Below, in pieces: positions 866 to 33,311 of a stretch of DNA of 64,000 bases (position 1 is the stretch's first letter; the number at the start of each line of letters is the position of its first letter). The notes under the pieces were generated by a model. The model was given only the letters and a program-made list of their open reading frames with translations, did no database searches and was not told where the DNA came from. The position numbers were made by a program, and so were the translations under genes. The stretch is from a virus. Taxonomy: Duplodnaviria > Heunggongvirae > Uroviricota > Caudoviricetes. The stretch is taken from the IMG/VR virus record IMGVR_UViG_3300027295_000004, one strand, 5' to 3'.

Positions 866-888
866 ACAATACTATAGCTTCGGGCGTC

Positions 889-1329: not shown

Positions 1330-1352
1330 ACAATACTATAGCTTAGGGCGTC

Positions 1353-1856: not shown

Positions 1857-1879
1857 ACAATACTATAGCTTCGGGCGTC

Positions 1880-2257: not shown

Positions 2258-2280
2258 ACAATACTATAGATTAGGGCGTC

Positions 2281-2721: not shown

Positions 2722-2744
2722 ACAATACTATAGCTTAGGGCGTC

Positions 2745-3248: not shown

Positions 3249-3271
3249 ACAATACTATAGCTTAGGGCGTC

Positions 3272-3898
3272 TTATTCTTCAAGGATATAAACATACTCTT
3301 TGATCTTAGATACTTTTCTAATTTCCTCTTCTGTGAAATAGATTCCTTTTGCAAAAGAGATCCAAAGATTTCCACCAATCTCTTTAGGTAGGCCTTCTAA
3401 GGAAGTGAGAGAGTTGTAGCACGAGAAATCACCGCCTACTTTCTCTGGAGCACCTTTCAGGGAAGCCAGAGAGTTGTTGTAGCAATAGAAATCACCACCT
3501 ACTTCCATTGGTGACCCTTCTAGAGAAGTGAGAGGGTTTTGGTCACAAAAGAAATCGCCTTCTACTTTCTCTGGAGCACCTTCCAAGGAAGTGAGAGAGT
3601 TGTTGTAGCAATGGAAACTGCCTCCTACTTTCTCTGGTGCTCCTTTCAGGGAAGTCAGAGAGTTGTTGTAGCAATGGAAATAACGTCCTACTTCCTTTGG
3701 CGCCCCTTTCAGAGAAGTGAGGGAGTTGTTGGTGCAAGAGAAATGACCTTCTACTTTCTCTGGCGCCCCTTCCAAGGATGTGAGGGAGTTGTTGTAGCAA
3801 AGGAAATTACCCTTCACTATCACATCTTCCAAGAAATCTGGCAATCGGTCTAGGTACAAAGCACTAAGATCGACGTTTTCTTGAATCACTTTGATCAT
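3272..3898 (-). CDS. LRR-like repeat protein paralog (208 aa)
   Basis: Paralog with seven repeats. Confidence 0.7.
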   Translation of the reverse strand: MIKVIQENVDLSALYLDRLPDFLEDVIVKGNFLCYNNSLTSLEGAPEKVEGHFSCTNNSLTSLKGAPKEVGRYFHCYNNSLTSLKGAPEKVGGSFHCYNNSLTSLEGAPEKVEGDFFCDQNPLTSLEGSPMEVGGDFYCYNNSLASLKGAPEKVGGDFSCYNSLTSLEGLPKEIGGNLWISFAKGIYFTEEEIRKVSKIKEYVYILEE

Positions 3899-3921
3899 AC
3901 AATACTATAGATTAGGGCGTC

Positions 3922-4299
3922 TTATTCTTCAATGATATAAACTCTCCCTTTGATCTTGGATACTTTTCTGATTTCCTCTTCTGTGAAATGGATCCCTTTT
4001 GCAAAAGAGATCCAAAGAATTCTACCAATCTCTTTAGGTAAACCTTCTAAAGATGTAAGTTTGTTGTCGTGGCAAAAGAAATTACCACCTACTTTCTCCG
4101 GTGCTCCTTCTAAGGATGTGAAAGAGTTGTAGGGGCAATAGAAATTACCACCTACTTTCTTTGGAGCCCCTTCTAAGGATGTGAGAGAGTTGTTGCCGCA
4201 AAAGAAATCACCCTTCACTATCACATCTTCCAAGAAATCTGGTAGTTTCTCGAGGTACAAATCACTAAGATCGACATCTCCTTGGATCACTTTGATCAT
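3922..4299 (-). CDS. LRR-like repeat protein paralog (125 aa)
   Basis: Paralog. Confidence 0.7.
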   Translation of the reverse strand: MIKVIQGDVDLSDLYLEKLPDFLEDVIVKGDFFCGNNSLTSLEGAPKKVGGNFYCPYNSFTSLEGAPEKVGGNFFCHDNKLTSLEGLPKEIGRILWISFAKGIHFTEEEIRKVSKIKGRVYIIEE

Positions 4300-4334
4300 A
4301 CAATACTATAGCTTAGGGCGTAGTCGATCTCAAC

Positions 4335-4835
4335 TTATACATTGATGATTCTGCCTTTAATATTTGACACTTTTCTAATTTCCTCCTTCGTGAAATAGAT
4401 CCCTTTAGCAGAAGAGATATAAAGATCTTCACCAATCTTTTTAGGTAATCCTTCTAGTGAAATGAGAGGATTGTAAATACAACTGAAATTTCCTCCTACT
4501 TCCTCTGGAGCACCTTCTAAGGAAGTGAGAGAGTTATAAGAGCAATCAAAATATCCATATACTTTGGCTGGAGCTCCATTTAGGGTCTTGAGACTGTTAT
4601 ATGTACAGTTGTAATTTCCACCTACTTTCTCTGGGGCTCCTTCTAAGGATGTGAGGGAGTTGTTGTAGCAATAGAAACCACGACCTACTTTCTCTGGAGC
4701 ACCTTCTAGAGAGGATAGGAAGTTGAAAGCGCAATGGAACATGCCATGTACAACCATAACCTCTTTCATGAAGTCTGGTATTTTAGTGATGTATAATTTA
4801 CTAACATTAACACTTCCATGAATTTCTTTCGACAT
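4335..4835 (-). CDS. Divergent LRR-like repeat protein paralog (166 aa)
   Basis: Same repeat architecture at lower identity; the upstream spacer differs. Confidence 0.65.
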   Translation of the reverse strand: MSKEIHGSVNVSKLYITKIPDFMKEVMVVHGMFHCAFNFLSSLEGAPEKVGRGFYCYNNSLTSLEGAPEKVGGNYNCTYNSLKTLNGAPAKVYGYFDCSYNSLTSLEGAPEEVGGNFSCIYNPLISLEGLPKKIGEDLYISSAKGIYFTKEEIRKVSNIKGRIINV

Positions 4836-4850
4836 ATAAAAATATTCGGA

Positions 4851-5480
4851 TTACCGGTCCTTAATATATTTAACAAACCCTCGGATTTTCGACCGTTTCC
4901 TAATTTCTGTTTCTGGGAAAAATTCTTTCAATTTCAAAGGAATATAAAAATCTTCGCCAATTTCTGATGGTATGCCCTCTAATGAAACCAGAGGATTGTC
5001 AATGCATGAAAATGAATATTTTACTATTCTCGGTGCACCTTTCAAAGAGGTGAGATTGTTGTTATAGCAATAGAAATCCCCACCTACTCTCTTAGGAGCT
5101 CCCTCTAGTGTAGAAAGTTTATTATCATTGCAATAGAAAATCCCATCTACTTCATCGGGGGCTCCTTCTAATGACACGAGTGAGTTAATACCACAATCGT
5201 AATCTGTCCCTACTTCTATTGGACCTCCTTCTAGAGTAGTGAGAGAGTTGCAAGAGCAGTCAAAGGATCCTTTTACTTTCTCGGGGCCTCCTTTTAATGA
5301 TTTAAGCCTATTTGAATAACAATCAAATGTTTGTACTACTCTTGGGCTATTCTCTAATGTATAAAGATAATTTTCTATACATGAAAACATCCCATTGACT
5401 ACAGCACCATTGAGAAATTCCGGCAATTTAAAAAGAACCAATTCATCAAGAATTACATTGCCGTTAATAACCTTCTCCAT
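4851..5480 (-). CDS. Most divergent LRR-like repeat protein paralog (209 aa)
   Basis: NxLxSLxGxPxxVxGxFxC repeats retained; C terminus IRKRSKIRGFVKYI resembles the family cap. Confidence 0.6.
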   Translation of the reverse strand: MEKVINGNVILDELVLFKLPEFLNGAVVNGMFSCIENYLYTLENSPRVVQTFDCYSNRLKSLKGGPEKVKGSFDCSCNSLTTLEGGPIEVGTDYDCGINSLVSLEGAPDEVDGIFYCNDNKLSTLEGAPKRVGGDFYCYNNNLTSLKGAPRIVKYSFSCIDNPLVSLEGIPSEIGEDFYIPLKLKEFFPETEIRKRSKIRGFVKYIKDR

Positions 5481-9294: not shown

Positions 9295-9370
9295 TGGTAG
9301 CCACGGTCGGACTCGAACCGACACTCTACGGATTTTAAGTCCGTTGCCTCTGCCATTGGACTACGTGGCC
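9295..9370 (-). tRNA. tRNA with anticodon UAA (Leu-type), but with a 4-nt variable loop (class I architecture)
   Basis: Minus strand: ggccacg-ta-..-acgga-cttaaaa-tccgt-agag-tgtcg-ttcgagt-ccgac-cgtggct-a-cca. Confidence 0.55.
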
Positions 9371-12527: not shown

Positions 12528-13553
12528 TTATTTGTTTGAGTCGTAATCGAGATTGATGATCTTGAACGAACCTTTGCTGTGTCGAACTACTACACCTTCA
12601 AAGGGTTTGCCATCGATTTGATTGATTCCTTTTTGGTAGAAGTTAATCATATCTTCGGATAGCAACGGCCTCACAGAGTGTTCAAAGTCAACAGTGTAAT
12701 TGTCGTTTACAAACGGCACATGAGGAATTTGTAATACAGCCGCCACGTTCGGGGAGTAATCAGCGTCGCCTTCCTTTTCATACTTCAGGGTATTAAGATT
12801 GAAGACACTGAATACGGCAAAGTCCAAGGGACCTTTGCTGTGTGGGTTCTTGCTGAAATTTTGGATATTGCCTCCATAGATTTCACCTCGAAGAGCAAGT
12901 GATACGTCGTTCCGTTTGCAATACTCAAGAAGCTTCTCGAGAATATTGTATTTCTTCACGATCTTGGTATAGTTGTTATTAGTTTCTGGTTTGATTTCTA
13001 GATTGCGACTAGTAACACCAGTAGACCATTCTCCGGTCGACGGATCTTTGCGTGCGTAGTAAGTAGCACTTTGCCCATCAATCTTCAGGGTGACATCAAC
13101 CTTTTCACCATACGGGAGAAACCCGATAAGGTTCTGGAATCGTTCTTCGTCAGTCTTCACCAGACTATACGGCAGATTCCCTTTAGCATCCAGAGAGGTT
13201 GGAGCAGGTGGGTCGTACTTATATACCCCAATATGGGAACTAATCTCAGTACCAACTTCGACATTTTGAAGATCGAATAACGAGTCTACTTCGGTAAGTC
13301 CCATGATAATACCAAACGACCATTCGCCTCGAAGCTTGATAGCTTTGACTCGCGACGACTTTTTCTTAAAGATTTCAGCCCAGGGCTTATCTGGAAGAAC
13401 AGTATCGGGCTGGATAAAGACTACACGATCACCTACCTTATATTTGTCTTTAAGAGTGATGCATTCATATCCTAGAACTCCAACGAGATCCAACGAATCT
13501 GCATTGGGATGATGTTTGACAGCAGCGATGGTTTCAATAGAGGCGAGCTTCAT
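12528..13553 (-). CDS. RNA ligase (Rnl2-type nucleotidyltransferase) with an N-terminal tRNA-binding OB-fold (Trbp111/EMAP-like) domain
   Basis: N terminus MKLASIETIAAVKHHPNADSLDLVGVLGYECITLKDKYKVGDRVVF resembles the tRNA-binding arm of Trbp111/MetRS; ligase motif I is LKIDGQS, motif IV is EGVVVRH, motif V is FKIIN. Start moved to the internal Met at 13553. Confidence 0.6.
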   Translation of the reverse strand: MKLASIETIAAVKHHPNADSLDLVGVLGYECITLKDKYKVGDRVVFIQPDTVLPDKPWAEIFKKKSSRVKAIKLRGEWSFGIIMGLTEVDSLFDLQNVEVGTEISSHIGVYKYDPPAPTSLDAKGNLPYSLVKTDEERFQNLIGFLPYGEKVDVTLKIDGQSATYYARKDPSTGEWSTGVTSRNLEIKPETNNNYTKIVKKYNILEKLLEYCKRNDVSLALRGEIYGGNIQNFSKNPHSKGPLDFAVFSVFNLNTLKYEKEGDADYSPNVAAVLQIPHVPFVNDNYTVDFEHSVRPLLSEDMINFYQKGINQIDGKPFEGVVVRHSKGSFKIINLDYDSNK

Positions 13554-13593
13554 GTAGTTAATATAGCTCGAGGTGTGATGTGTATCAACTATT

Positions 13594-13944
13594 TTAGCAT
13601 TTAAGCCAGCGCCATCTTTTATGTCGAACTGCCCATTTTCGTGGGATCCATGACAAAATTTTATTGACAAACGACATGACAACTTTGTTGTATTTATACT
13701 CAGTTGCATCCCCTTGTTTCCATACGACGATATGGTCGGGCACCACTGTTGGTCTGTTATTGCCTATGCGATAGACTCGATTCCAATATACAATATCTCT
13801 ATATGGAGACACCCAGCCTTGGAACCTATCATATCGTGCTGTTAATGTGTCGTAGCTTCTTCTGGAGAAACTTCGTTCGGCATAGTGCCCATCTTCATGA
13901 TAGACATATATCGTTGCATTTCCGAAATCATTAAGGGGATTCAT
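13594..13944 (-). CDS. Hypothetical protein (116 aa)
   Basis: ORF. Confidence 0.4.
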   Translation of the reverse strand: MNPLNDFGNATIYVYHEDGHYAERSFSRRSYDTLTARYDRFQGWVSPYRDIVYWNRVYRIGNNRPTVVPDHIVVWKQGDATEYKYNKVVMSFVNKILSWIPRKWAVRHKRWRWLKC

Positions 13945-24867: not shown

Positions 24868-24956
24868 GGGTTCTTTTCCTGACGGTGGACTGTAAATCCA
24901 TTGCCGTGTTATGTCAGGCGGTTCGGCAGAAGGTTCAACTCCTTGAGGACCCACCA
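24868..24956 (+). tRNA. Atypical tRNA-like gene (GUA Tyr-type anticodon hairpin; truncated D-arm; ~27-nt variable region)
   Basis: Acceptor gggttct/aggaccc-a-cca; T-arm gaagg-ttcaact-ccttg; anticodon hairpin gtgga-ctgtaaa-tccat. The D region is only 8-9 nt and can instead pair with the variable region (cctgac/gtcagg). Confidence 0.35.
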
Positions 24957-24965
24957 ATTTCAAAT

Positions 24966-25042
24966 GGGGGTGCATGTACTAAGGCTAGCGAGACTGATTT
25001 GCAATCAGACTGTTGTGGGTTCGATTCCCACCATCTCCACCA
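24966..25042 (+). tRNA. tRNA (anticodon probably UGC, Ala); D-arm pairing is poor
   Basis: Acceptor gggggtg/catctcc-a-cca; T-arm gtggg-ttcgatt-cccac; anticodon loop tttgcaa. Confidence 0.45.
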
Positions 25043-25046
25043 ATTT

Positions 25047-25139
25047 GGATGATTAAGCAGACAAGCGTGCTGCATCTGTTTGGAAGACAGATTGATCTAG
25101 TGATCCTAGGTTGGGGTGCAAGTCCTCATTCATCCGCCA
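25047..25139 (+). tRNA. tRNA-Ser (GGA), class II, with a non-canonical T-loop TGCAAGT
   Basis: Acceptor ggatgat/ttcatcc-g-cca; anticodon tctgt-ttggaag-acaga; long variable arm; D-loop lacks GG. Confidence 0.55.
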
Positions 25140-25145
25140 CTTTCT

Positions 25146-25221
25146 GGTGTTGTATTTTAATCGGCAAATTGCTATCCTGTCACGATAGATGATGCGGGTT
25201 CGAATCCCGTCAGCACCGCCA
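25146..25221 (+). tRNA. tRNA-Asp (GUC)
   Basis: Acceptor ggtgttg/cagcacc-g-cca; anticodon ctatc-ctgtcac-gatag; T-arm gcggg-ttcgaat-cccgt. Confidence 0.65.
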
Positions 25222-25227
25222 ATTTAT

Positions 25228-25320
25228 GGGTAGCTAAACAGACAAGCGCGCTGTAACCGCCTTGAAAGCGGATTGATCTAGTGATCCTAGGTTGGGGTGC
25301 AAGTCCTCAGTTACCCGCCA
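25228..25320 (+). tRNA. tRNA-Ser (UGA), class II, non-canonical T-loop TGCAAGT
   Basis: Acceptor gggtagc/gttaccc-g-cca; anticodon loop cttgaaa. Confidence 0.55.
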
Positions 25321-25464
25321 ATTAAGCATCAACTATCCACACTTTATGAGGAAATCCTCACAAGCTATCCCTTATATGGCTCTGGTCAAACATGGGCTTG
25401 TGCATGTTTGTAGATGATAACAGTGCTCACTGGAAAATAGCTAACTCTTAGTGGAGCACATTTC

Positions 25465-25538
25465 GGTCTTTTAGTTTAATGGTAAAACGACGCACTTGTA
25501 ATGCGTTGATTCCGGTTCGACTCCGGACAGGACCTCCA
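25465..25538 (+). tRNA. tRNA-Thr (UGU)
   Basis: ggtcttt-ta-gttt-aatggta-aaac-g-acgca-cttgtaa-tgcgt-..-tccgg-ttcgact-ccgga-caggacc-t-cca. Confidence 0.65.
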
Positions 25539-25547
25539 TTTCTTTTT

Positions 25548-25623
25548 ACGTGCTAATGTCCCAAGGCAGGCGAGTTGGACTCCAAATCCGACTGGGTCAG
25601 TTCGATTCTGACAGCACGTGCCA
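25548..25623 (+). tRNA. tRNA-Trp (CCA)
   Basis: Acceptor acgtgct/agcacgt-g-cca; anticodon ttgga-ctccaaa-tccga; T-arm gtcag-ttcgatt-ctgac. Confidence 0.55.
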
Positions 25624-25628
25624 ATTTC

Positions 25629-25702
25629 GGCCTATTAGTTTAGTGGTAAAACAATTTACTCGTAATGAATAGTCCCCAGCTCAATTCTGGGATAGGCCTC
25701 CA
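25629..25702 (+). tRNA. tRNA-Thr (CGU)
   Basis: Acceptor ggcctat/ataggcc-t-cca; anticodon attta-ctcgtaa-tgaat. Confidence 0.6.
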
Positions 25703-25708
25703 TCTTAT

Positions 25709-25785
25709 GCGGTTGTAGCTCAATTTGGTAGAGCGCATCCTTGCCAAGGATATTGTCGCAGGTTCGAATCCTGTCAGCCGCACCA
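25709..25785 (+). tRNA. tRNA-Gly (GCC)
   Basis: Canonical: gcggttg-ta-gctcaatttggtagagc-..ttgccaa..-gcagg-ttcgaat-cctgt-cagccgc-a-cca. Confidence 0.7.
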
Positions 25786-25787
25786 AT

Positions 25788-25880
25788 GGGTAGTTAAGCA
25801 GACAAGCGTACTGCAACCGTCTCGAAAGCGGATTGATCTAGCGAACCTAGGTTGGGGTGCAAGTCCTCAGCTACCCGCCA
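25788..25880 (+). tRNA. tRNA-Ser (CGA), class II, non-canonical T-loop TGCAAGT
   Basis: Acceptor gggtagt/gctaccc-g-cca; anticodon loop ctcgaaa. Confidence 0.55.
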
Positions 25881-25888
25881 TTTTATAT

Positions 25889-25962
25889 GGTCCTTTAGCA
25901 TAATGGTAATGCATCGGATTTTGATTCCGACTATGATGGTTCAATTCCATCAGGGACTTCCA
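25889..25962 (+). tRNA. tRNA-Gln (UUG)
   Basis: D gcat-aatggta-atgc; anticodon tcgga-ttttgat-tccga; T gatgg-ttcaatt-ccatc. Confidence 0.6.
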
Positions 25963-25972
25963 ATTTCTTTTG

Positions 25973-26047
25973 GCTCGAATAGCACAATGGTGAGTGTATT
26001 TCCTTGGTATGGAAGGGATGTGGGTTCGATTCCCACTTTGAGCCCCA
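25973..26047 (+). tRNA. tRNA-Thr (GGU)
   Basis: Acceptor gctcgaa/tttgagc-c-cca; anticodon tttcc-ttggtat-ggaag. Confidence 0.55.
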
Positions 26048-26050
26048 CAC

Positions 26051-26122
26051 GCCTCTGTAATTCAAAAGTAGAATGGTTGTTTCATAAGCAACACGGTGAA
26101 GGTGCAAGTCCTTCCGGAGGTA
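26051..26122 (+). tRNA. tRNA-Met/Ile2 (CAU), non-canonical T-loop TGCAAGT, D-loop without GG; CCA not encoded
   Basis: gcctctg-ta-attc-aaaagta-gaat-g-gttgt-ttcataa-gcaac-acggt-gaagg-tgcaagt-ccttc-cggaggt-a. Confidence 0.5.
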
Positions 26123-26131
26123 CTAATTTAT

Positions 26132-26800
26132 ATGCCAAACACTGCAATTTTATTCACAGGAAACGTACACGGTGACACCATTGATGTTCTAATTGAACAG
26201 ACCAAAAATCAGACAAATAAAATAGCATCAATATGGGAAAATGAATCACCTGAATATGTCGACAAATTAAAAAACAACAATTTTAAAATCATTTACAATA
26301 GTGTAAAACAACAAGAAATATATAAACCACAGTTTATTACTGTACATAATGGGTTGAAGTATCTTAAAGAAAACGGATATGAATATGTATTAAGGACTCG
26401 TTTTGATATACTATGTCAAGATTATGATAGATATTTAGAGATACTGGCGAAGTCGTATCGCGAAAAGCTAACAGCTATCGCTGGCATAGAGACATCTACC
26501 ACTTATTTTTTAGATATTATTATAGGTGGGAAAATTGATGAGATGCTTAAATTTTTCGCATTGCAGCCAAACTATGATGTTAGGTACTATGAAAAATTTT
26601 TAATAGAAAATTACTCAAATAAAACAAATCTAACTAAAGAAGAAATAAGAAATATATTGAATTTCTCGTTAAGTGATTGTGTCAATAACAACATTGAATT
26701 CATATGGTACAGGCCAATTTCGTGGAAGTCGCAAACGATCACGTGGCCAGACATGAGAGTAATTAATGAGTATTGCAAAAATAATTTTATCTGGATGTAG
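26132..26800 (+). CDS. Hypothetical protein (223 aa) encoded by a markedly AT-rich ORF inserted within the tRNA array
   Basis: ORF 26096-26800 trimmed to the ATG at 26132 to clear the tRNA; K/N/I/Y-rich composition unlike flanking DNA; its stop overlaps the 5' end of tRNA-Pro. Confidence 0.45.
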   Translation: MPNTAILFTGNVHGDTIDVLIEQTKNQTNKIASIWENESPEYVDKLKNNNFKIIYNSVKQQEIYKPQFITVHNGLKYLKENGYEYVLRTRFDILCQDYDRYLEILAKSYREKLTAIAGIETSTTYFLDIIIGGKIDEMLKFFALQPNYDVRYYEKFLIENYSNKTNLTKEEIRNILNFSLSDCVNNNIEFIWYRPISWKSQTITWPDMRVINEYCKNNFIWM

Positions 26801-26867
26801 TTCAGCTTGGTAGAACATTTGATTTGGGATCAAAAGGTCGTGGGTTCGAATCCCACCATCCAGACCA
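26791..26867 (+). tRNA. tRNA-Pro (UGG)
   Basis: ctggatg-ta-gttc-agcttggta-gaac-a-tttga-tttggga-tcaaa-aggtc-gtggg-ttcgaat-cccac-catccag-a-cca. Confidence 0.65.
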
Positions 26868-26870
26868 ATT

Positions 26871-26878
26871 TATAAATA
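26871..26878 (+). promoter_or_regulatory. TATAAATA motif (T4-late-promoter-like) between tRNA-Pro and the second tRNA-Met
   Basis: Exact match. Confidence 0.25.
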
Positions 26879-26924
26879 AACAAGTTGATAACAACACAAC
26901 CACGTGTTAATATTAACTACACAT

Positions 26925-26999
26925 TGCGGGATAGAGCAGTAGTAGCTCAACTGGCTCATAACCAGGAGGTCGGTGGTGCAAGTCCATCTCCCGCAACCA
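26925..26999 (+). tRNA. tRNA-Met/Ile2 (CAU), second copy, non-canonical T-loop TGCAAGT, D-loop agtagta
   Basis: tgcggga-ta-gagc-agtagta-gctc-..-ctcataa-..-ggtgg-tgcaagt-ccatc-tcccgca-a-cca. Confidence 0.5.
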
Positions 27000-27013
27000 A
27001 TTTCAACATATGT

Positions 27014-27109
27014 GCTCCTGTAGCTCAATTGGTAGAGCGGAAAGCTTATACCTTTCGTATGCCCCAGATTAGGGCGCGGTTGTCGGTTCGAATCCGGCCA
27101 GGAGTACCA
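27014..27109 (+). tRNA. Atypical tRNA with anticodon UAU (Ile-type) and a ~25-nt variable region
   Basis: gctcctg-ta-gctcaattggtagagc-g-gaaag-cttatac-ctttc-[25 nt]-gtcgg-ttcgaat-ccggc-caggagt-a-cca. Confidence 0.4.
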
Positions 27110-27127
27110 ATTTCAACGAAAACAAAA

Positions 27128-27451
27128 ATGACTAAAAAAGATCGCAACAAACCCACATATGAGTGGATTGATGTAAATGCTGGTGAAGCATATTACTCTT
27201 TATATGCATATTGTTTAGACAACGCCGATCAACTAAACGGCCATCCTGGAATTCAAATCGGGTGTTATCATTACGCCATCAGCAGAAAGATGACACCAAA
27301 AAAACCATTCAAAGTACATGCTAGGAAAATGAATCAAGGGCATATATGGAGAGGCTGGGGTAGATCTTACATTAAAGTAGATCGCGACATTCAGGTAGAT
27401 AACAAAAAAAGATTCTGGCCTACACACAATCAAATTTCAATAGAAGTTTAA
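27128..27451 (+). CDS. Hypothetical protein (107 aa)
   Basis: ORF 26885-27451 trimmed to the Met at 27128; the upstream part overlaps two tRNAs. Confidence 0.4.
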   Translation: MTKKDRNKPTYEWIDVNAGEAYYSLYAYCLDNADQLNGHPGIQIGCYHYAISRKMTPKKPFKVHARKMNQGHIWRGWGRSYIKVDRDIQVDNKKRFWPTHNQISIEV

Positions 27452-27460
27452 CCTGCACAT

Positions 27461-27535
27461 GCCTCTGTAATTCAATGGTAGAATAACAGACTTTTAATCT
27501 GAAGGTTATGGGTTCGAGTCCCATCGGAGGCACCA
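27461..27535 (+). tRNA. tRNA-Lys (UUU)
   Basis: gcctctg-ta-attc-aatggta-gaat-..-cttttaa-..-atggg-ttcgagt-cccat-cggaggc-a-cca. Confidence 0.6.
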
Positions 27536-27604
27536 ATTTATACAGTCAACGCTCTGATATATTGCTATAGTATATAAGTAATAATTTAATTTAATTTTTA
27601 ATAT

Positions 27605-27679
27605 TCCTCAGTGGCAGACTAGCAATGCACCCGACTGTTAATCGGGATTATGAAGGAGCGTAACCTTCCTGAGGAGCCA
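27605..27679 (+). tRNA. tRNA-Asn (GUU) with an aberrant T-loop (AGCGTAA) and a D-loop without GG
   Basis: Acceptor tcctcag/ctgagga-g-cca; anticodon cccga-ctgttaa-tcggg. Confidence 0.45.
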
Positions 27680-27743
27680 ATTTATAACTGCGATCAAAAC
27701 ACAAAGCAGTTGCTAATAACAACACCCGATGTGAATATATAAC

Positions 27744-27992
27744 ATGAAGAAAACTCAACGCCAATGTGCAGACGACTTAGTCAACTACATCATTCGTAAA
27801 GAACTTATTCACATCAAGTCAGAATATCTTCTTCGCATTGAAAATAGTGAATGGATGGCATGTGGCACAGAGGATAAAACCAGAATTGAAGAATTGCAAC
27901 GGGACATTCAAAGTGCTCGAGAATATATTAGTGTACTGGATGAGTACATCACTAAATTTGAAAAAGTAGAAACCTCGCCATTGTTCAATTAA
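27744..27992 (+). CDS. Hypothetical protein (82 aa)
   Basis: ORF inside the tRNA array. Confidence 0.4.
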   Translation: MKKTQRQCADDLVNYIIRKELIHIKSEYLLRIENSEWMACGTEDKTRIEELQRDIQSAREYISVLDEYITKFEKVETSPLFN

Positions 27993-28280
27993 ATGGAACA
28001 ACTAATAGAACCATTCTGCTACATTGCAAATGTCAAAGTTACAGATAAAAATGGCAAACAAGGGAATAGACCGTTAATTAGATTTCAAGCACCTGACTCG
28101 GGATTAAATTTTAATACTTATTACGTTGCGTGCGCATGTGCTTCTGTATACAACATGTTCCTTGATTATATTGCCGAGAAAGATCAAATAGAATTTGAAA
28201 AACAATTCAAAGAGATATTCAATAAGCTTATCGATGAAGGTCTAATAGAAATCATGAAAGACAAACCAATTTCGGGTTGA
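27993..28280 (+). CDS. Hypothetical protein (95 aa)
   Basis: ORF; its stop overlaps the 5' end of tRNA-Phe. Confidence 0.4.
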   Translation: MEQLIEPFCYIANVKVTDKNGKQGNRPLIRFQAPDSGLNFNTYYVACACASVYNMFLDYIAEKDQIEFEKQFKEIFNKLIDEGLIEIMKDKPISG

Positions 28281-28349
28281 TAGCAATGATGGTTCATGCG
28301 TCTGTCTGAAGAACAGATCATCTCGGTTCGAATCCGAGTCAACCCACCA
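28274..28349 (+). tRNA. tRNA-Phe (GAA)
   Basis: gggttga-ta-..-tctgt-ctgaaga-acaga-tcat-ctcgg-ttcgaat-ccgag-tcaaccc-a-cca. Confidence 0.65.
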
Positions 28350-28354
28350 CTTAT

Positions 28355-28429
28355 GTCGCCGTCGTCTAATGGTTAGGACGGAGGATTTTCATTCCTCAAA
28401 TGGGGGTTCGATTCCCCTCGGCGATACCA
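28355..28429 (+). tRNA. tRNA-Glu (UUC)
   Basis: gtcgccg-t-cgtc-taatggttag-gacg-gagga-ttttcat-tcctc-..-ggggg-ttcgatt-cccct-cggcgat-a-cca. Confidence 0.65.
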
Positions 28430-28439
28430 ATTTCAATAC

Positions 28440-28534
28440 GGAGTGTAAACCAAACAGGCGCGTTGGAACTGTTTGCTAAACAGATTGTGGTTTTGCTAAA
28501 AAGCCATCTGGTTCGAGTCCAGTGCACTCCGCCA
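28440..28534 (+). tRNA. tRNA-Ser (GCU), class II with a long variable arm
   Basis: Acceptor ggagtgt/gcactcc-g-cca; anticodon loop ttgctaa; variable-arm stem ggtttt/aaagcc. Confidence 0.6.
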
Positions 28535-28540
28535 CTTTAT

Positions 28541-28615
28541 TGTCTCGTAGCTCATCGGTAGAGCACTTCCCTGATAAGGAATAGGTAGCTGGTTCGATTC
28601 CAGTCGGGACAACCA
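28541..28615 (+). tRNA. tRNA-Ile (GAU)
   Basis: tgtctcg-ta-gctc-atcggtag-agc-..-ctgataa-..-gctgg-ttcgatt-ccagt-cgggaca-a-cca. Confidence 0.6.
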
Positions 28616-28637
28616 ATTTCAATAACCAATACTAAAA

Positions 28638-28865
28638 ATGAAAAGATATCTTTTGATAGCAGGCCACGACTATTATCCTGGTGCGGGTACAAGCAATTGG
28701 GTTGATTCGTATGATTCATACGAAGAGGCTCTCAATATGGTTGAAACAATGGAAGAAAATAACTACGGTAGGTGTGGTTATACTATTGGAGATATGCCAT
28801 GTGATTGGTATGAAATAGTAGATTTAAACGAATGGAGTCCTCGCAATTCAATTTCAACATATTAA
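28638..28865 (+). CDS. Hypothetical protein (75 aa)
   Basis: ORF. Confidence 0.4.
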   Translation: MKRYLLIAGHDYYPGAGTSNWVDSYDSYEEALNMVETMEENNYGRCGYTIGDMPCDWYEIVDLNEWSPRNSISTY

Positions 28866-28870
28866 ATCCA

Positions 28871-29968
28871 ATGCAAACACTTTACAAATACAGTACCAAA
28901 GGCGCACCTCTTCAGTGGAGCATTGAAGTAGAAGGTGACAAGTATCGAACGATTGAAGGGCAAGTAGGAGGCAAGCTGACTACTTCGCAATGGACTATTT
29001 GTTTCGCAAAGAATGTTGGTAAGGCAAACGCAACTACGGCAGAAGAACAAGCTCTGAAAAAGGCTGAATCTATCTATCGCAAGAAAAAGGACGCCGGATT
29101 CAGCGAGACATTGGAATCATCTGGTGCGAATTTCTTTGAACCGATGCTTGCTCATAAATGGGATCAGCACCCTCTAGCACCTGGTACACCATTGGCTCTT
29201 CAGCCCAAACTAGACGGACATAGATGCATTGCGTATCTTAAAGATGGTAAAGTATATCTCCAAAGTCGAAAGGGCAAACAGATCACTTCATGCACCCATA
29301 TTGAAAATGCTCTTGAAGATTTATTCAAAGAAAATCAATCTTTTATTCTAGATGGTGAGCTTTACAATCATACCATTCCGTTTGAAAAGATTTCGGGGTT
29401 AGTTCGTCAAATTGAACACACTGCGGAATGCAAAGATATTCAATATCATGTTTATGATCTTGTTGATCTAAATAACCGACAACTAACTTTCGACGAAAGA
29501 AATTGGCAATTGGTTACAAAGCAATTACGGCTTTGTAATAATGAGCATATAAACATGGTTACTACATTGTTCGTAAATGGCAGCGATGCTATTGCGGAGT
29601 ATGAAAGTGAGTGTGTGGAAGATGGATATGAAGGTATCATGATTCGTGATACTACATCTATCTATGAGAATAAAAGATCGAAAGGACTTCTGAAACTCAA
29701 ACAATTCCAAGACGAAGAATTCAATATTGTCGAAATCAAAGAAGGTCAAGGTAATCGCACCGGACTAGCCACAGAAGCAGTATTGGCTCTTGAAGACGGT
29801 AGAGCTTTTTCTACTGGAGTTATTGGCAACGAAGAATATGCACGTGGCTTATTTAATGACCGCGAAAAAGTCAAAGGGATGCTAGCCACAGTAAAATACC
29901 AAGGAAAGACTGCACAGGGGATTCCTAGATTTGGTAAAATGAAAATCGTAAGATATGAAGGATTCTAA
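28871..29968 (+). CDS. ATP-dependent DNA ligase
   Basis: Motif I KLDGHR, motif III ILDGELY, motif IV EGIMIRD, motif V LLKLK; start set to the Met at 28871 after the upstream stop. Confidence 0.85.
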   Translation: MQTLYKYSTKGAPLQWSIEVEGDKYRTIEGQVGGKLTTSQWTICFAKNVGKANATTAEEQALKKAESIYRKKKDAGFSETLESSGANFFEPMLAHKWDQHPLAPGTPLALQPKLDGHRCIAYLKDGKVYLQSRKGKQITSCTHIENALEDLFKENQSFILDGELYNHTIPFEKISGLVRQIEHTAECKDIQYHVYDLVDLNNRQLTFDERNWQLVTKQLRLCNNEHINMVTTLFVNGSDAIAEYESECVEDGYEGIMIRDTTSIYENKRSKGLLKLKQFQDEEFNIVEIKEGQGNRTGLATEAVLALEDGRAFSTGVIGNEEYARGLFNDREKVKGMLATVKYQGKTAQGIPRFGKMKIVRYEGF

Positions 29969-29970
29969 GT

Positions 29971-30363
29971 ATGAATATATCTTTTAATCATTTCCATAAA
30001 CTATTATCAGATCCAAGGTTTATAGTAAAATACAAGCATCCTGACTGTACTGATGTTCGGGAGTGTAGATTCAAACAAAACCTTCTTAAATTTTTTAAAG
30101 GCACAAACACTCTGTATGTTGATGCTGATCTGTGGTTTCTGGAAGAATACAACAAAGCAATATCTTATGACGAAGAATCGGGTTCTTTCATTCTTCGCAA
30201 GAAAGAATATGACATGGAAGAAACTGATGAATTTGAAGTAGTCGAGGGGTGGGACGGATATTGTGAAACGAGACCGATTATAAAAGTACTCGACACATGG
30301 AAACTAATTCCGATTACGTTCACATTTTACGCAAGAGCATCAACAAAAGACTTGATAGGCTAA
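29971..30363 (+). CDS. Hypothetical protein (130 aa)
   Basis: ORF. Confidence 0.45.
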   Translation: MNISFNHFHKLLSDPRFIVKYKHPDCTDVRECRFKQNLLKFFKGTNTLYVDADLWFLEEYNKAISYDEESGSFILRKKEYDMEETDEFEVVEGWDGYCETRPIIKVLDTWKLIPITFTFYARASTKDLIG

Positions 30364-30387
30364 CAGCCCCGTTGTATAATTGTTTAC

Positions 30388-30463
30388 GCGGTAGTAGCTC
30401 AATTGGTAGGGCGTCTGACTTCCACTCAGAATGTTGCAGGTTCGAGTCCTGTCTACCGCACCA
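30388..30463 (+). tRNA. tRNA-Gly (UCC)
   Basis: gcggtag-ta-gctcaattggtagggc-g-tctga-cttccac-tcaga-atgtt-gcagg-ttcgagt-cctgt-ctaccgc-a-cca. Confidence 0.65.
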
Positions 30464-30492
30464 CATTCAACCAAATCAACCAAATCAACATA

Positions 30493-30627
30493 ATGGATAT
30501 AGACTCAATTATCACTACAATACCAAAATTGATTTATTTCACAAGCATTGGATTTTTAGTTATATTGTACTTTGCATTGATTATCAAAGCATTGGTTATC
30601 GCACTCGATGCAATCATTGATTTCTAA
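30493..30627 (+). CDS. Small hydrophobic (membrane) protein (44 aa)
   Basis: ORF 30403-30627 trimmed to the Met at 30493 downstream of the tRNA. Confidence 0.3.
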   Translation: MDIDSIITTIPKLIYFTSIGFLVILYFALIIKALVIALDAIIDF

Positions 30628-30630
30628 AAT

Positions 30631-30927
30631 ATGAGTGGAGGGCATTTTGATTACAATCAATTTCGATTGACTGACATTTCGAGGGAAATCATGTCCCTTA
30701 TTAATAGCAATGAAGTTCCAAATGAATTCAGGCAGGCTCGGAAGTATCCTACTGATATTTTAGATAAGTTTGAAGTAGCAATGATTATATTAGATACTGC
30801 TGCAGATATAGTACATCATATCGATTATCTTGTTGAAGGAGATATTGGAGAAGATACATTCAGGGAACTATATAACAAAGCAATCAAGGATTTTTGTACC
30901 AAACTTGCAGAACATCAACTTACTTAA
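30631..30927 (+). CDS. Hypothetical protein (98 aa)
   Basis: ORF. Confidence 0.4.
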   Translation: MSGGHFDYNQFRLTDISREIMSLINSNEVPNEFRQARKYPTDILDKFEVAMIILDTAADIVHHIDYLVEGDIGEDTFRELYNKAIKDFCTKLAEHQLT

Positions 30928-30941
30928 CCTTAAATACTCTT

Positions 30942-31415
30942 ATGCCCACTAACGACCAATCTCTCATCTGTGAAGCGTACGCAGATCAAATCGCATCAAA
31001 TGCATCCGACTCTGAAGAATATTCGATTTTTATCGAAGCAGAACTAACTGCACCAGCGAAGACATCCAAAGCAATTCAAGCATTTGAAAACATTCTCAAA
31101 CGATATGATCGAAATGGTGCAATAGCATTAACTCCCGGGGGTGTATATACACGACCTTCAGGTGACAAGACTGTAGTTGAATATGATGCATATATTAAAC
31201 GAGGGCGAAGATACATCAATCCAGAAGAAGACAATTCGCGTTATCTTCCGTCATATATCGAATCAGCTATCTCTGACTTGTATGATGACCTTGAAGGTTA
31301 TAACGGTACAGATGACATCGAATTGGAAGGCGAAGATGGAGATCCTCCAGAACACGTCTCAAGCTTCGAGATTCCTGGTGAGAGGGTGACTATCAGATAC
31401 GTATTGAGCTACTAA
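30942..31415 (+). CDS. Hypothetical acidic protein
   Basis: ORF 30894-31415 trimmed to the Met at 30942. Confidence 0.4.
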   Translation: MPTNDQSLICEAYADQIASNASDSEEYSIFIEAELTAPAKTSKAIQAFENILKRYDRNGAIALTPGGVYTRPSGDKTVVEYDAYIKRGRRYINPEEDNSRYLPSYIESAISDLYDDLEGYNGTDDIELEGEDGDPPEHVSSFEIPGERVTIRYVLSY

Positions 31416-31506
31416 TTTAAATTTGGCATGGACGACTAGACGGACGCATGTCGAGGATATCCAACATCAGTTCAACTAGTGACTGCGGGAGAGAACCGCA
31501 CAATTT

Positions 31507-31582
31507 GGATGGCGACCCGGCTAGTGAAGGGCTACGTCTGCAAAACGTTTGTTGTTGAGTGCGATTCTCAAGCCATCCTCCA
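31507..31582 (+). tRNA. tRNA-Cys (GCA) with a non-canonical T-loop TGCGATT
   Basis: ggatggc-ga-ccc-ggctagtgaa-ggg-c-tacgt-ctgcaaa-acgtt-tgttg-ttgag-tgcgatt-ctcaa-gccatcc-t-cca. Confidence 0.5.
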
Positions 31583-31709
31583 ATTTTAAAACATGCACAC
31601 TATACATACAACCACTACAAACAATCAATCTAAACAAGAAGAGCCCCAACGCACTTCTTTGATGGTAGCTCCTACTAAATTCTATATTTGGTGTAAAAGC
31701 AAATTCAAC

Positions 31710-31937
31710 ATGGCACTAATTTTAAGCATCGGGTTCCTTTTAGTGCAGGGAGTTAATGGGCAAAATTCTTTTCGATTAAATACATTAGGTTCTGACGGGC
31801 CTGATGGTATTTGTGTGCGGAATGGAAATCAATGGGATTGCTATGGGCAACATATTAGCGCACCCGAACCAACGAACCCAGGAGTCCTGATGACAGCAGC
31901 GGGGGTAGCAGTTATGATGAAAAGAAAGAGGCATTAA
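31710..31937 (+). CDS. Small secreted protein with a PEP-CTERM-like C terminus
   Basis: N-terminal signal peptide MALILSIGFLLVQGVNG; C terminus APEPTNPGVLMTAAGVAVMMKRKRH (PEP motif, TM segment, basic tail). Confidence 0.35.
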   Translation: MALILSIGFLLVQGVNGQNSFRLNTLGSDGPDGICVRNGNQWDCYGQHISAPEPTNPGVLMTAAGVAVMMKRKRH

Positions 31938-32036
31938 TTTCTTTTGATTTTTAAAAAACAAACAATAAGATGTTGATTTAACACACACCACAAAGTATAA
32001 TATAAACGAAGATAACATCTTCAACAAAATCAAATT

Positions 32037-32525
32037 ATGAAAACAAAACTACTATCACTAGTAATGGCACTCGCAACACAAATGGCATTTGCAGGCTCTC
32101 CTGTAACACCTCCAACCCCTGCTACACCAGAAGTTGGATCCACAGGATGGGTTTCAAAGGCATTCACAACTGTGGTCCTTGACAATGGTGATGAAACAGT
32201 CGGTGGAGGTTTGAGTCTTGAAGCTCCAGTTGTAGGCGATCTGAAAGCAGAACTTACTGTTGGTGTAGCAGATGACCTTTATACCGTAGGTGGTAATCTT
32301 CTCTATTACGTCCCCGTAGGAGAGAAGCTTTCTGTATATGGCTTGGCGGGCGGTGCTTATGAATTCGATACAGATCAATGGACCGTACGAACCGGTGGCG
32401 GTCTAAGTTATAGTCTTACTAATACCCTCAATCTGTTTGCAGATGCAACCTACAATTTCCTTGTAGAGAATGATGCCAAGGATGGCGTCGTTGCAATTCG
32501 AGCAGGTGTTGGGTTTAAGTTCTGA
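32037..32525 (+). CDS. Outer-membrane beta-barrel protein (OmpA-N/OmpW-like small barrel)
   Basis: Signal peptide MKTKLLSLVMALATQMAFA; alternating amphipathic beta strands; C-terminal GVGFKF with a terminal Phe. Confidence 0.6.
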   Translation: MKTKLLSLVMALATQMAFAGSPVTPPTPATPEVGSTGWVSKAFTTVVLDNGDETVGGGLSLEAPVVGDLKAELTVGVADDLYTVGGNLLYYVPVGEKLSVYGLAGGAYEFDTDQWTVRTGGGLSYSLTNTLNLFADATYNFLVENDAKDGVVAIRAGVGFKF

Positions 32526-32597
32526 TTATACTGATCTGAATAGGCGAACGCCACCTGGTAAAGTGCGTGACAGCCGGAGAGACGGCCTCGTTAATTT

Positions 32598-32672
32598 GGG
32601 TGGTTCGTATAACGGATAGTACGCAACGCTACGGACGTTGAGACAGGGGTTCGATTCCTCTACTGCCCACCA
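32598..32672 (+). tRNA. tRNA-Arg (ACG)
   Basis: gggtggt-tc-gtat-aacggata-gtac-g-caacg-ctacgga-cgttg-agac-agggg-ttcgatt-cctct-actgccc-a-cca. Confidence 0.65.
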
Positions 32673-32675
32673 TAT

Positions 32676-32749
32676 GCCCAGTTCGTTCAACGGATAGGAC
32701 AGCGGTCTTCTAAACCGCGAATAGAGGTTCGATTCCTCTACTGGGTACC
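32676..32749 (+). tRNA. tRNA-Arg (UCU)
   Basis: gcccagt-tc-gttc-aacggata-ggac-a-gcggt-cttctaa-accgc-gaat-agagg-ttcgatt-cctct-actgggt-a-cca. Confidence 0.6.
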
Positions 32750-32760
32750 ATTTTCCATAT

Positions 32761-32837
32761 AGCCACGTGATGTAATTGGTAAACGTGACGGTCTCAAAAA
32801 CTGTTTTCTATGGGTTCGAGTCCCATCGTGGCTACCA
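32761..32837 (+). tRNA. tRNA with anticodon CAA (Leu-type) but a 5-nt variable loop (class I architecture), A73
   Basis: agccacg-tg-atgt-aattggtaa-acgt-g-acggt-ctcaaaa-actgt-tttct-atggg-ttcgagt-cccat-cgtggct-a-cca. Confidence 0.5.
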
Positions 32838-32838
32838 T

Positions 32839-32915
32839 GCCCTGTGTAGCATATTTAGTTAATGTCTTCGCCTGTGAAGCGAACGAAGATGGTGCAATTC
32901 CATCCCAGGGAACCA
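32839..32915 (+). tRNA. tRNA-His (GUG) with a non-canonical T-loop TGCAATT, D-loop without GG and an imperfect acceptor stem
   Basis: Anticodon ttcgc-ctgtgaa-gcgaa; T-arm gatgg-tgcaatt-ccatc; the 5' g at 32839 may be the His G-1. Confidence 0.45.
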
Positions 32916-33065
32916 ATTCGCGAATAGTTAATGGTATCGTTCGAAAGATACTAAAGACTAACTGAGACCCCCATTTCGAAGTTTATAGGTTGAACACCGC
33001 AGTTAATCGGTGCGGGAGGTGTGTTCGAGTGCACACGATGGATCAGGTCTCGACAATTTACATAT

Positions 33066-33139
33066 GCCCGCATAGCCCAATCGGTAGAGGCACTTGACTT
33101 AGGATCAAGAGGTTGGGGGTTCGAATCCCTCTGCGGGTA
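33066..33139 (+). tRNA. tRNA with anticodon UAG (Leu-type) but a 5-nt variable loop, A73, no encoded CCA
   Basis: gcccgca-ta-gcc-caatcggtaga-ggc-a-cttga-cttagga-tcaag-aggtt-ggggg-ttcgaat-ccctc-tgcgggt-a. Confidence 0.5.
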
Positions 33140-33147
33140 CTTTTTAT

Positions 33148-33234: not shown

Positions 33235-33311
33235 GGCTATATGACGTAATTGGTAAACGTATTGCATTGAGGATGCAAGTTTTGCAGGTTCGAGTCCTGT
33301 TATAGCCACCA
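33235..33311 (+). tRNA. tRNA with anticodon GAG (Leu-type) but a 5-nt variable loop, A73
   Basis: ggctata-tg-acgt-aattggtaa-acgt-a-ttgca-ttgagga-tgcaa-gtttt-gcagg-ttcgagt-cctgt-tatagcc-a-cca. Confidence 0.55.

Follow-up and report, generated by a model that had tools for sequence, protein, structure and literature searches.

Background

In the canonical tRNA elbow A58, G18, R57, G19 and C56 lie in one stack, and G18 together with pseudouridine at position 55 (Psi55) is treated as universal in cytoplasmic-type tRNAs; TruB, TrmH and TrmA have been studied, and tRNA finders scored, accordingly. Psi55 itself has been called 'universally conserved' (PMC4810234). We report here a comparative analysis of eight tRNA genes that have G at position 55, located in the tRNA array of a 64,000-nucleotide stretch of viral DNA (Caudoviricetes; IMG/VR record IMGVR_UViG_3300027295_000004), the whole of which is referred to below as the window. 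The eight are quite probably functional phage tRNAs in which, as far as their sequences allow one to judge, the elbow would be held by an alternative, co-varying tertiary contact between A18 and G55.

T-loops are described as a UA-handle followed by a UNR or GNR turn, with an intercalating nucleotide that is held by a G-clamp or, 'more rarely a U-clamp', the tRNA being the U-clamp case (PMC2615604). Where two T-loops form a double module, the A that fills the gap makes a trans Watson-Crick/sugar edge pair with a G conserved as the second nucleotide of the T-loop (PMC3664808). A U-G-N-R-A loop of five nucleotides, closed by a trans Watson-Crick/Hoogsteen U:A pair and with its turn made by the second-position G, is shared by the double T-loops of RNase P (J11/12-J12/13), the L1 stalk and T-box Stem I, as well as by a T-loop-like ATP aptamer. 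In RNase P, the L1 stalk and the T-box, an adenine fills the 4/5 gap and pairs with the G at position 2 (PMC2615604, PMC3664808), whereas in the window the partner would be the covarying A18. G-clamp T-loops are thus familiar from rRNA, ribozymes, riboswitches and aptamers, whereas the tRNA form described in the searchable literature is only the U-clamp (Psi55 with G18).

Other tRNAs are known to depart from the consensus at the same positions. The non-proteinogenic tRNA-Gly of Staphylococcus aureus and S. epidermidis, which serve peptidoglycan synthesis, are also devoid of G18-G19 and U55 (PMC13443448). In S. aureus they have U18U19 or C18U19 (PMC4574755), so that G19:C56 is gone too, whereas the window tRNAs keep G19:C56 and have A, not a pyrimidine, at position 18. 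Moreover, the S. aureus tRNA-Gly have a single specificity, weak EF-Tu determinants that bar them from translation and an extra 31:38 pair, whereas the eight tRNAs of the window represent six amino acids. tRNA-Pyl and metazoan mitochondrial type II tRNAs are natural functional tRNAs without G18G19 and the T-Psi-C consensus (PMC7609411). Their loops are shortened or unconserved, and the elbow has other contacts (G13:C55 in the tRNA-Pyl of D. hafniense) or none, whereas the eight have canonical loop sizes and the remaining elbow nucleotides, with one pair exchanged by rule.

The (8/4) phage tRNA-Ser and tRNA-His of Mukai et al. (2017, PMC5389517) share with the window their stems (acceptor stem of 8 bp, T stem of 4 bp), their identities and their joint occurrence in phage clusters, and the 8/4 architecture of the window Ser and His genes is therefore already known for phage tRNAs. 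That family is defined by stem lengths, and the main text of the paper is silent on D-loop, T-loop, G18 and U55. A search of the full-text literature, with subscription-only papers (e.g. in-vitro or in-vivo D/T-loop selections of the 1990s-2000s) outside its reach, found no account of A18:G55, or of G55, in tRNAs of phages or Patescibacteria. As far as that search goes, a G-clamp T-loop in the elbow of a tRNA would be new, the G-clamp motif and the 8/4 stems being known.

An exchanged 18:55 pair in eight tRNAs of the window

The window contains 32 credible tRNAs, with all 20 amino acids represented; the array lies on the + strand at 24.8-33.3 kb, and one extra Leu gene is found at 9.3 kb. Exactly eight have G at T-loop position 55 (Table 1). 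They are the eight named in a first-pass annotation of this DNA, with the T-loops given there, and a sweep of the whole window by regular expression and ARAGORN found no ninth. Their D-loops have no GG at positions 18-19 (the GG of Cys sits at the 5' edge of the loop, as had been noted), and the other 24 tRNAs all combine U55 and C56 with GG in the D-loop. The reported co-variation of the two loops is thus complete within the window (8/0 versus 0/24, Fisher p = 9.5e-8). The annotation regarded these other tRNAs as fully canonical, which is correct for positions 18, 19, 55 and 56, but Thr-CGU, Ser-GCU, the four Leu and the UAU tRNA depart from the consensus in other ways (see below).

The same annotation held that both partners of G18:U55 and G19:C56 had been lost, and here we come to a different result. 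None of the eight has lost C56, and all their D-loops have A-G at the site where the canonical paralogs have G-G (CAAGC, AAAGT, GTAGT, CTAGC, CTAGT, TTAGT). Two paralog pairs in the array set the numbering: (i) Ser-GCU (ACAGGCGCG/TTCGAGT) and Ser-UGA (ACAAGCGCG/TGCAAGT), which have the same unusual 8/4 architecture, and (ii) Lys-UUU (AATGGTA/TTCGAGT) and CAU#1 (AAAAGTA/TGCAAGT), which have acceptor and D stem in common. The A is therefore position 18 and the G position 19. Read in this alignment, G19:C56 is retained and G18:U55 is turned into A18:G55 in all eight. When held against the conserved set G18, G19, U54, U55, C56, R57 and A58, all eight differ at G18 (A) and U55 (G) and all keep G19, C56 and R57. 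U54:A58 is present in seven; in Asn this pair is exchanged too, from U:A to A:U. Re-folding of the T arm to put U at position 55 is impossible without breaking T stems of 4-5 bp. The worry that a correct folding would put U at 55 and GG at 18-19 can be laid aside.

Covariation of the elbow positions in other sequences

IMG/VR viral contigs were scanned with the pattern GGTGCAAGTCC(N11)CCA (at least 119 loci), metagenomes with the Ser T arm (61 loci, including L145), and one genome per prokaryotic species with a G55 Met-type pattern (at least 119 loci). The first of our two tRNA tables holds every tRNA on the viral and metagenomic loci listed, the second those of related viral, metagenomic and genomic contigs. 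In the viral scan, 78 of the 124 listed matches are the 3' part of a tRNA called by ARAGORN, and nearly all of these have A-G and no G-G in the D-loop. Locus L145 was rejected as evidence of conservation, being the same phage as the window, identical save for a 24-bp indel.

Among the 927 unique tRNAs of the first table, G55C56 is found with an AG-only D-loop in 214, with a GG-containing one in 36 and with neither in 8, versus 603 with GG and 6 with AG only for U55C56 (Fisher p = 5e-154). AG is also present in 35 of the 36 GG-containing G55 D-loops, where GG is mostly incidental (e.g. AGGAGTA). Of the G55 D-loops, 95 are a single substitution away from a canonical one, and in 89 of these the change is A>G at the first G of GG. 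We then set positions 18-19 blind to the T-loop, from the nearest canonical D-loop of the same length with both positions ignored (the second table, 1,058 unique tRNAs). With AG at 18-19, positions 55-56 are GC in 230 of 230; with GG they are UC in 760, CC in 26 and GC in 3; with GA, UU in 9 of 11; and with GU, UA in 6 of 10. A reciprocal scan, seeded on the A18 D-arm (TAGCTCAATAGTAGAGC), gave G55C56 in 48 of 53 unique tRNAs. Position 18 covaries with 55 (G:U to A:G) and position 19 with 56 by Watson-Crick rules (G:C, A:U, U:A), the pattern to be expected where the tertiary contacts still form; the pairing of AG with GC in all 230 cases argues that the elbow is kept by way of one exchanged tertiary pair, and is not dismantled. 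Chance as the cause of the co-variation is rejected by the Fisher tests, the 230 of 230 and the reciprocal 48 of 53.

These results also bear on the possibility that both D-loop/T-loop pairs are lost in the eight and that a loosened or rebuilt elbow alters recognition by host enzymes or nucleases. It would account for the lack of D-loop GG and of U55 in all eight, and tRNAs without G18G19 and T-Psi-C do exist, as in S. aureus tRNA-Gly (PMC13443448, PMC4574755), tRNA-Pyl and mitochondria (PMC7609411). We consider it very unlikely, however, as C56 and A-G at 18-19 are each present in eight of eight, the S. aureus pattern of U18U19 or C18U19 is a different one, and the strict association of AG with GC, like the Watson-Crick covariation of 19 with 56, is expected only if both contacts form.

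The exchange extends well beyond the specificities found in the window. G55 tRNAs were found with 49 anticodons and on 94 contigs; of 265, 244 have GCAA or GCGA at positions 55-58, and the U54:A58 to A54:U58 exchange is present in 26 tRNAs, the window Asn among them. Further elbow variants were observed on metagenome contigs (L127, L130, L136, L144, L146, L148, L172, L174): D-loop G-A with T-loop U-U (e.g. AGCTGAATA/TTTGAGT), D-loop G-U with T-loop U-A (CAATTGTATAA/TTAGAAT), and D-loop A-U with T-loop G-A or G-G (TAATTATTTG/TGAGAAT). T-loops with A54 and A60 (ATCGATA, ATCAAGA), also from metagenome relatives, resemble those of eukaryotic initiators.

Several points weigh against an A18:G55 elbow in working tRNAs. 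The large tRNA tables hold related sequences that are not phylogenetically independent, from loci chosen for at least one G55 (or A18) tRNA, and a few apparent combinations of G18 with G55 occur in them (a Ser tRNA in L170; L193; L261). In the window, CAU#1 ends in A-CTA, so CCA is not encoded; Cys has the poorest cloverleaf of the eight, with a D stem of 2-3 bp; and the His acceptor (8 positions) has two mismatches, G1.A72 and U7.C66, next to a T stem of 4 bp. A search of the window with the Rfam tRNA model RF00005 (E<=10) left Ser-GGA, Ser-UGA, Ser-CGA and Cys unreported. The geometry of the A18:G55 pair is one that we infer by analogy with the RNA modules cited above. Finally, the share of G55 tRNAs per contig is bimodal (see below), which points to pressure at the level of lineages, something that strict neutrality would leave unexplained.

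Proposed structure and modification status

The G-clamp signature is U-G-N-R-A, and seven of the eight T-loops read U-G-C-R-A, with A-G-C-G-U in Asn. We propose that these T-loops would adopt the G-clamp/GNR version of the motif, with A18 intercalating between R57 and A58 and pairing with G55 (trans Watson-Crick/sugar edge), while the outer G19:C56, R57 and, in seven of the eight, the U54:A58 closing pair would be retained. The L-shape, and the flat G19:C56 face for the ribosome, RNase P and the CCA-adding enzyme, would stay preserved. Because G55 and A18 replace U55 and G18, the eight are predicted to have neither Psi55, for which TruB needs U55, nor 2'-O-methylated G18 (Gm18), for which TrmH needs G18. 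To this extent the earlier suggestion of altered recognition by host modification enzymes seems well founded, as G55 and A18 in the sequence exclude both modifications. We found no evidence for escape from RNases or anticodon nucleases, whose recognition of these tRNAs was likewise suggested to change.

Evidence for working genes and the 8/4 architecture

In the G55 Ser family, 20 divergent members have double compensatory changes in 17 of 27 stem pairs, with the D-loop (ACAAGCG) and the T-loop fixed. Whether G55 is conserved in relatives, a point raised at first pass, can be answered in the affirmative, as this family keeps its loops over about 40 divergent contigs. The compensatory changes were traced in the Ser family; the cloverleaves of CAU#1, CAU#2, Asn, Cys and His are regular according to ARAGORN. 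The discriminators fit the anticodons (Table 1), CCA is encoded in seven of the eight, and the eight are the only tRNAs of the array for UCN-Ser, His, Cys, Asn and AUG.

Gene callers gave a divided picture. By default ARAGORN called six of the eight, Asn and Cys being added once the threshold was lowered, and the scores of the eight range from 93.5 to 111.2. With RF00005, which has a gathering score of 29 bits, CAU#2 (58.8 bits), CAU#1 (56.4), Asn (47.9) and His (42.2) are all above that score. The covariance scores by which the eight were to be judged thus support four of them and miss the three Ser and Cys, although all eight are called by ARAGORN.

These observations make it scarcely credible that the eight are decaying pseudogenes or functionless tRNA-like remnants. 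In favour of decay one may cite covariance and ARAGORN scores below those of the canonical neighbours, the CAU#1 gene without CCA and the poor D stem of Cys. But the cloverleaves are intact, with correct discriminators and the encoded CCA just mentioned, the Ser loops are kept and their stems compensated, no other tRNA of the array serves the same codons, and the two positions always change together, which is not expected of decay.

Table 1. Position of the eight G55 tRNAs, of two internal controls and of other features of the window
Feature	Position	Strand	Stems; D-loop	Positions 18-19	T-loop	Position 55 and others	Discriminator, 3' end; remark
tRNA-Ser(GGA)	25047..25139	+	8/4	A18 25064, G19 25065	TGCAAGT 25117-25123	G55 25118, C56 25119	G73, CCA encoded
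tRNA-Ser(UGA)	25228..25320	+	8/4; ACAAGCGCG	A18 25245, G19 25246	TGCAAGT 25298-25304	G55 25299	G73, CCA encoded
tRNA-Ser(CGA)	25788..25880	+	8/4	A18 25805, G19 25806	TGCAAGT 25858-25864	G55 25859	G73, CCA encoded
tRNA(CAU) #1	26051..26123	+	AAAAGTA	A18 26067, G19 26068	TGCAAGT 26103-26109	G55 26104	
tRNA(CAU) #2	26925..26999	+	AGTAGTA	A18 26941, G19 26942	TGCAAGT 26977-26983	G55 26978	A73
tRNA-Asn(GUU)	27605..27679	+	ACTAGCA	A18 27621, G19 27622	AGCGTAA 27657-27663	A54, G55 27658, C56, G57, U58	G73, CCA encoded
tRNA-Cys(GCA)	31507..31582	+	contains CTAGTGA	A18 31523, G19 31524	TGCGATT 31560-31566	G55 31561	U73, CCA encoded
tRNA-His(GUG)	32839..32915	+	8/4-like; ATTTAGTTA	A18 32857, G19 32858	TGCAATT 32893-32899	G55 32894	A73
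tRNA-Ser(GCU)	28440..28534	+	8/4; ACAGGCGCG		TTCGAGT		internal control, canonical elbow
tRNA-Lys(UUU)	27461..27535	+	AATGGTA		TTCGAGT		internal control, CAU#1 paralog
tRNA-Thr(CGU)	25629-25702	+			CTCAATT	C54	
tRNA-Leu, four genes (UAA, CAA, UAG, GAG)	9295-9370 (-); 32761-32837, 33066-33140, 33235-33311 (+)						
UAU-anticodon tRNA (called Ile)	27014-27109	+	7/5				A73
tRNA-Tyr(GUA) candidate	24868-24956	+					
RNA ligase	12528-13709	-					
ORF-free stretches with hairpins	25321-25464, 31416-31506, 32526-32597, 32916-33065	+					
Tandem small ORFs	299-5480	-					

As for the 8/4 architecture, column 8 of the Ser alignment pairs with column 82 in 20 of 20 members (UA 9, AU 5, GC 4, CG 2), and the acceptor stem is therefore of 8 bp and the T stem of 4 bp; the fifth T-stem nucleotide assigned by ARAGORN is an invariant U that would pair in only about half of them. 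The His layout, with its eight acceptor positions, two mismatches and 4-bp T stem, is the same in L157, L284 and L008, but the 8/4 assignment appears less well supported for His than for Ser. The features of 8/4 identity are all present: a long variable arm, a Ser anticodon and G73 in Ser, and A73 without a separate G-1 in His. Architecture and elbow are nevertheless separable, as Ser-GCU combines 8/4 with the canonical elbow, and CAU#1, CAU#2, Asn and Cys combine 7/5 with the exchange.

An initiator-like tRNA and its counterpart in Patescibacteria

CAU#2 has several traits of an initiator: A11:U24, and the pairs G30:C40 and G31:C39, with U:A at 29:41, so that there are two and not three G:C pairs. 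The unpaired 1x72 of bacterial initiators is absent, as U1:A72 can pair. Among the listed matches of the genome scan, most are from Patescibacteria, the candidate phyla radiation (Saccharibacteria, Paceibacterota, Adler-, Kaiser-, Berkel- and Doudnabacteria). The gene in question is an initiator-type tRNA-Met with A11:U24, D-loop AGTAGTA or AGCAGTA and T-loop TGCAAGT (L188-L306, e.g. L190 2918-2990). It is chromosomal and lies in a conserved Met-Met-Asp-Thr-Thr cluster, with GatA, ribonucleotide reductase and other housekeeping genes as neighbours. CAU#2 and these initiators have identical D- and T-loops and only two G:C pairs, but in Patescibacteria 1x72 is mostly A.A or C.A and 29:41 is A:U, versus U1:A72 and U:A in CAU#2. 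The tRNAs beside the Patescibacteria gene are mostly canonical, although some genomes also have G55 in a second CAU tRNA or in Thr-GGU. In these Patescibacteria the G55 gene looks like the sole initiator tRNA. Some of the IMG/VR 'viral' contigs with a single Met gene could be cellular fragments.

Isolated phages and contigs with whole G55 sets

No near relative of the array was found by megablast among 50,697 phage records, and a distant search of isolate phages with the array matched single canonical tRNAs only. The DNA ligase of the array, tried as another route to relatives, led to one distant locus and was uninformative. Elbows are canonical in Mycobacterium phage Myrna, Caulobacter phage CcrSC and Erwinia phage pEa_SNUABM_47; the Ser tRNAs of phage DSS3_MAL1 have the D-loop ACAGGCGCG of the window 8/4 Ser-GCU, but with U55. 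The single G55 tRNA found in isolate phages is the Met-CAU of Myxococcus phage Mx1, a phage in which we also observed a TROVE gene within the tRNA region.

Some contigs, on the other hand, have nearly complete G55 sets (27 of 30, 31 of 33, 12 of 12 and 11 of 11 tRNAs). Over the 78 contigs with at least 6 tRNAs the G55 share is bimodal, being below 40% in 63 and at least 80% in 12. Arrays with 80-100% A18:G55 were seen on metagenome contigs (L129, L164, L156, L157, L153), on a viral contig (L046) and in Prosthecobacter/Verrucomicrobia genomes (L218, L230, L252, L264, L289). The Prosthecobacter array of L218 adjoins TROVE/Ro60-like, RlaP (RNA-repair) and HNH genes.

Such sets are difficult to reconcile with a role outside ribosomal translation, in which the eight would be charged but used elsewhere, like the cell-wall tRNA-Gly of S. 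aureus, or would serve as regulators or decoys. Exclusion from translation is indeed on record for the nearest bacterial tRNAs so far described that have neither G18G19 nor U55 (PMC13443448), and some irregular 8/4 tRNAs are charged yet unused in E. coli translation (PMC5389517). Against this, the eight have different specificities and include an initiator-like tRNA, other contigs have the exchange in whole decoding sets of at least 30 tRNAs, and Patescibacteria use it in what is apparently their only initiator tRNA. In addition, 8/4 tRNAs put Ser efficiently into protein in E. coli, according to the abstract of the latter paper. We consider such a role highly improbable, and infer that the eight function in translation, with A18:G55 in their elbow.

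Why the exchange exists

Most likely, A18:G55 is nearly equivalent in structure to the canonical pair and has come about repeatedly in the tRNA genes of phages. One might speculate instead that it was selected, either because it hides phage tRNAs from a factor that reads the G18/Psi55 elbow (a tRNase, a toxin or a modification-dependent sensor) or because A18:G55 identifies them as 'self' to a phage factor that clears away host tRNAs. Taken together we regard these two forms of selection as rather doubtful. They are compatible with the A18:G55 structure and concern only why the exchange exists.

Several facts would fit with selection. The exchange is abundant in viral contigs and tRNA arrays, 12 of 78 contigs have at least 80% G55, suggesting lineage-level pressure, and the all-G55 Prosthecobacter array adjoins TROVE/Ro and RlaP RNA-repair genes. 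Documented examples include phage tRNAs that escape anticodon nucleases and a Burkholderia toxin, CdiA-CT E479, reported to cleave the T-loop between T54 and Psi55. RNA ligases of other phages repair nuclease-cut tRNAs, and the window encodes one (Pfam RNA_ligase with a PHA02142 OB domain; PHROG 968), for which we found no polynucleotide kinase/phosphatase partner among the window open reading frames (ORFs) examined. On the other side, with only 8 of 32 window tRNAs involved the exchange cannot protect or mark the whole set, chromosomal initiators of Patescibacteria share the elbow in ordinary gene contexts, and no candidate nuclease or modification gene was found beside the all-G55 arrays examined or in the window array. 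Looking for an enzyme that would explain the exchange among the ORFs in or near the window array (Pfam, PHROGs), we found only DNA ligase, RNA ligase and an epimerase; next to two all-G55 arrays the ORFs matched Sir2, radical SAM, Dam methylase and a zinc finger, and nothing tRNA-specific. We are not aware of any defence system that recognises positions 18/55.

In its widest form, the idea is that A18:G55 is a selected, modification-independent tRNA 'chassis', which escapes or is recognised by an elbow-reading factor (tRNase, toxin, TruB-like chaperone or quality control). We hold this to be possible but unlikely. Were it true, the chassis would have been taken up for whole tRNA sets by some phages and for the initiator by Patescibacteria, and in the window it would harden the supply of Ser, His, Cys, Asn and Met tRNAs against such a factor.

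Other features of the window

The window seems to belong to a large phage genome and encodes ribonucleotide reductase subunits, an ATP-dependent DNA ligase, the RNA ligase and a glycosyltransferase (Pfam, PHROGs). Several of its canonical-elbow tRNAs are peculiar in other respects. Thr-CGU has C54, so that 5-methyluridine-54 is not possible, and is canonical in the rest. Bacterial-type tRNA-Leu normally has a long variable arm, but the four tRNA-Leu genes are of 75-77 nt with a variable loop of 4-5 nt, which gives them a class I look; three of them have A73 followed by CCA, and Leu-UAG is without an encoded CCA. Conversely, the UAU-anticodon tRNA, called as Ile, is of 96 nt and has a long extra stem-loop in the variable region, a class II shape that is unexpected for tRNA-Ile. 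UAU is noted as a predominant anticodon among irregular allo-tRNAs (Mukai et al., PMC5389517), but the window gene is 7/5. Ser-GCU gives an Rfam tRNA-Sec match of 34.5 bits, and an odd Tyr-GUA candidate with a long arm, called by ARAGORN at low threshold only (84.8), scores 26 bits with tRNA-Sec.

The motif CCAATTT occurs 15 times in the 8.6-kb array and 11 times in the remaining 55 kb. ATTT directly follows the encoded CCA in 14 of the 31 array tRNAs (24956-31590), and most of the others have a T-rich trailer; the CCAATTT trailer may be a processing signal of the tRNAs. In four ORF-free stretches of the array there are GC-rich hairpins, two of which end with CAATTT (31501, 33054) and one with TAATTT, similar to the tRNA trailers. 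These could represent small RNAs that are matured together with the tRNAs. The stretches have no Rfam match, and ARAGORN gives just a weak 'Ile-AAT' call at 32971-33042. Elsewhere in the window, some ten tandem small ORFs with recurring sizes (125, 146, 167 and 188-209 aa) and gaps of roughly 15-35 bp look like an array of paralogous genes.

Implications

A18 with G55 is a rule-like natural alternative to the canonical pair, found in hundreds of phage tRNAs of every specificity and in whole phage sets, and apparently also in the initiator tRNA of the Patescibacteria, a large radiation of bacteria. Watson-Crick covariation of 19:56 and swaps of 54:58 are found in the same arrays. Together they constitute a natural experiment on what an elbow needs, in which the T-loop of a tRNA can switch to the G-clamp form of rRNA and RNase P. 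The prediction is that of functional tRNAs without Psi55 or Gm18, and of rescue by double mutation only. As covariance models under-call such genes (four of eight missed here), phage tRNA inventories, and the codon-usage arguments built on them, may be biased. What is known so far of the tRNA conflict between phage and host mainly concerns the anticodon loop and the CCA end; should the exchange prove to be selected against a host factor that reads the elbow, the elbow would become a new site of that conflict.

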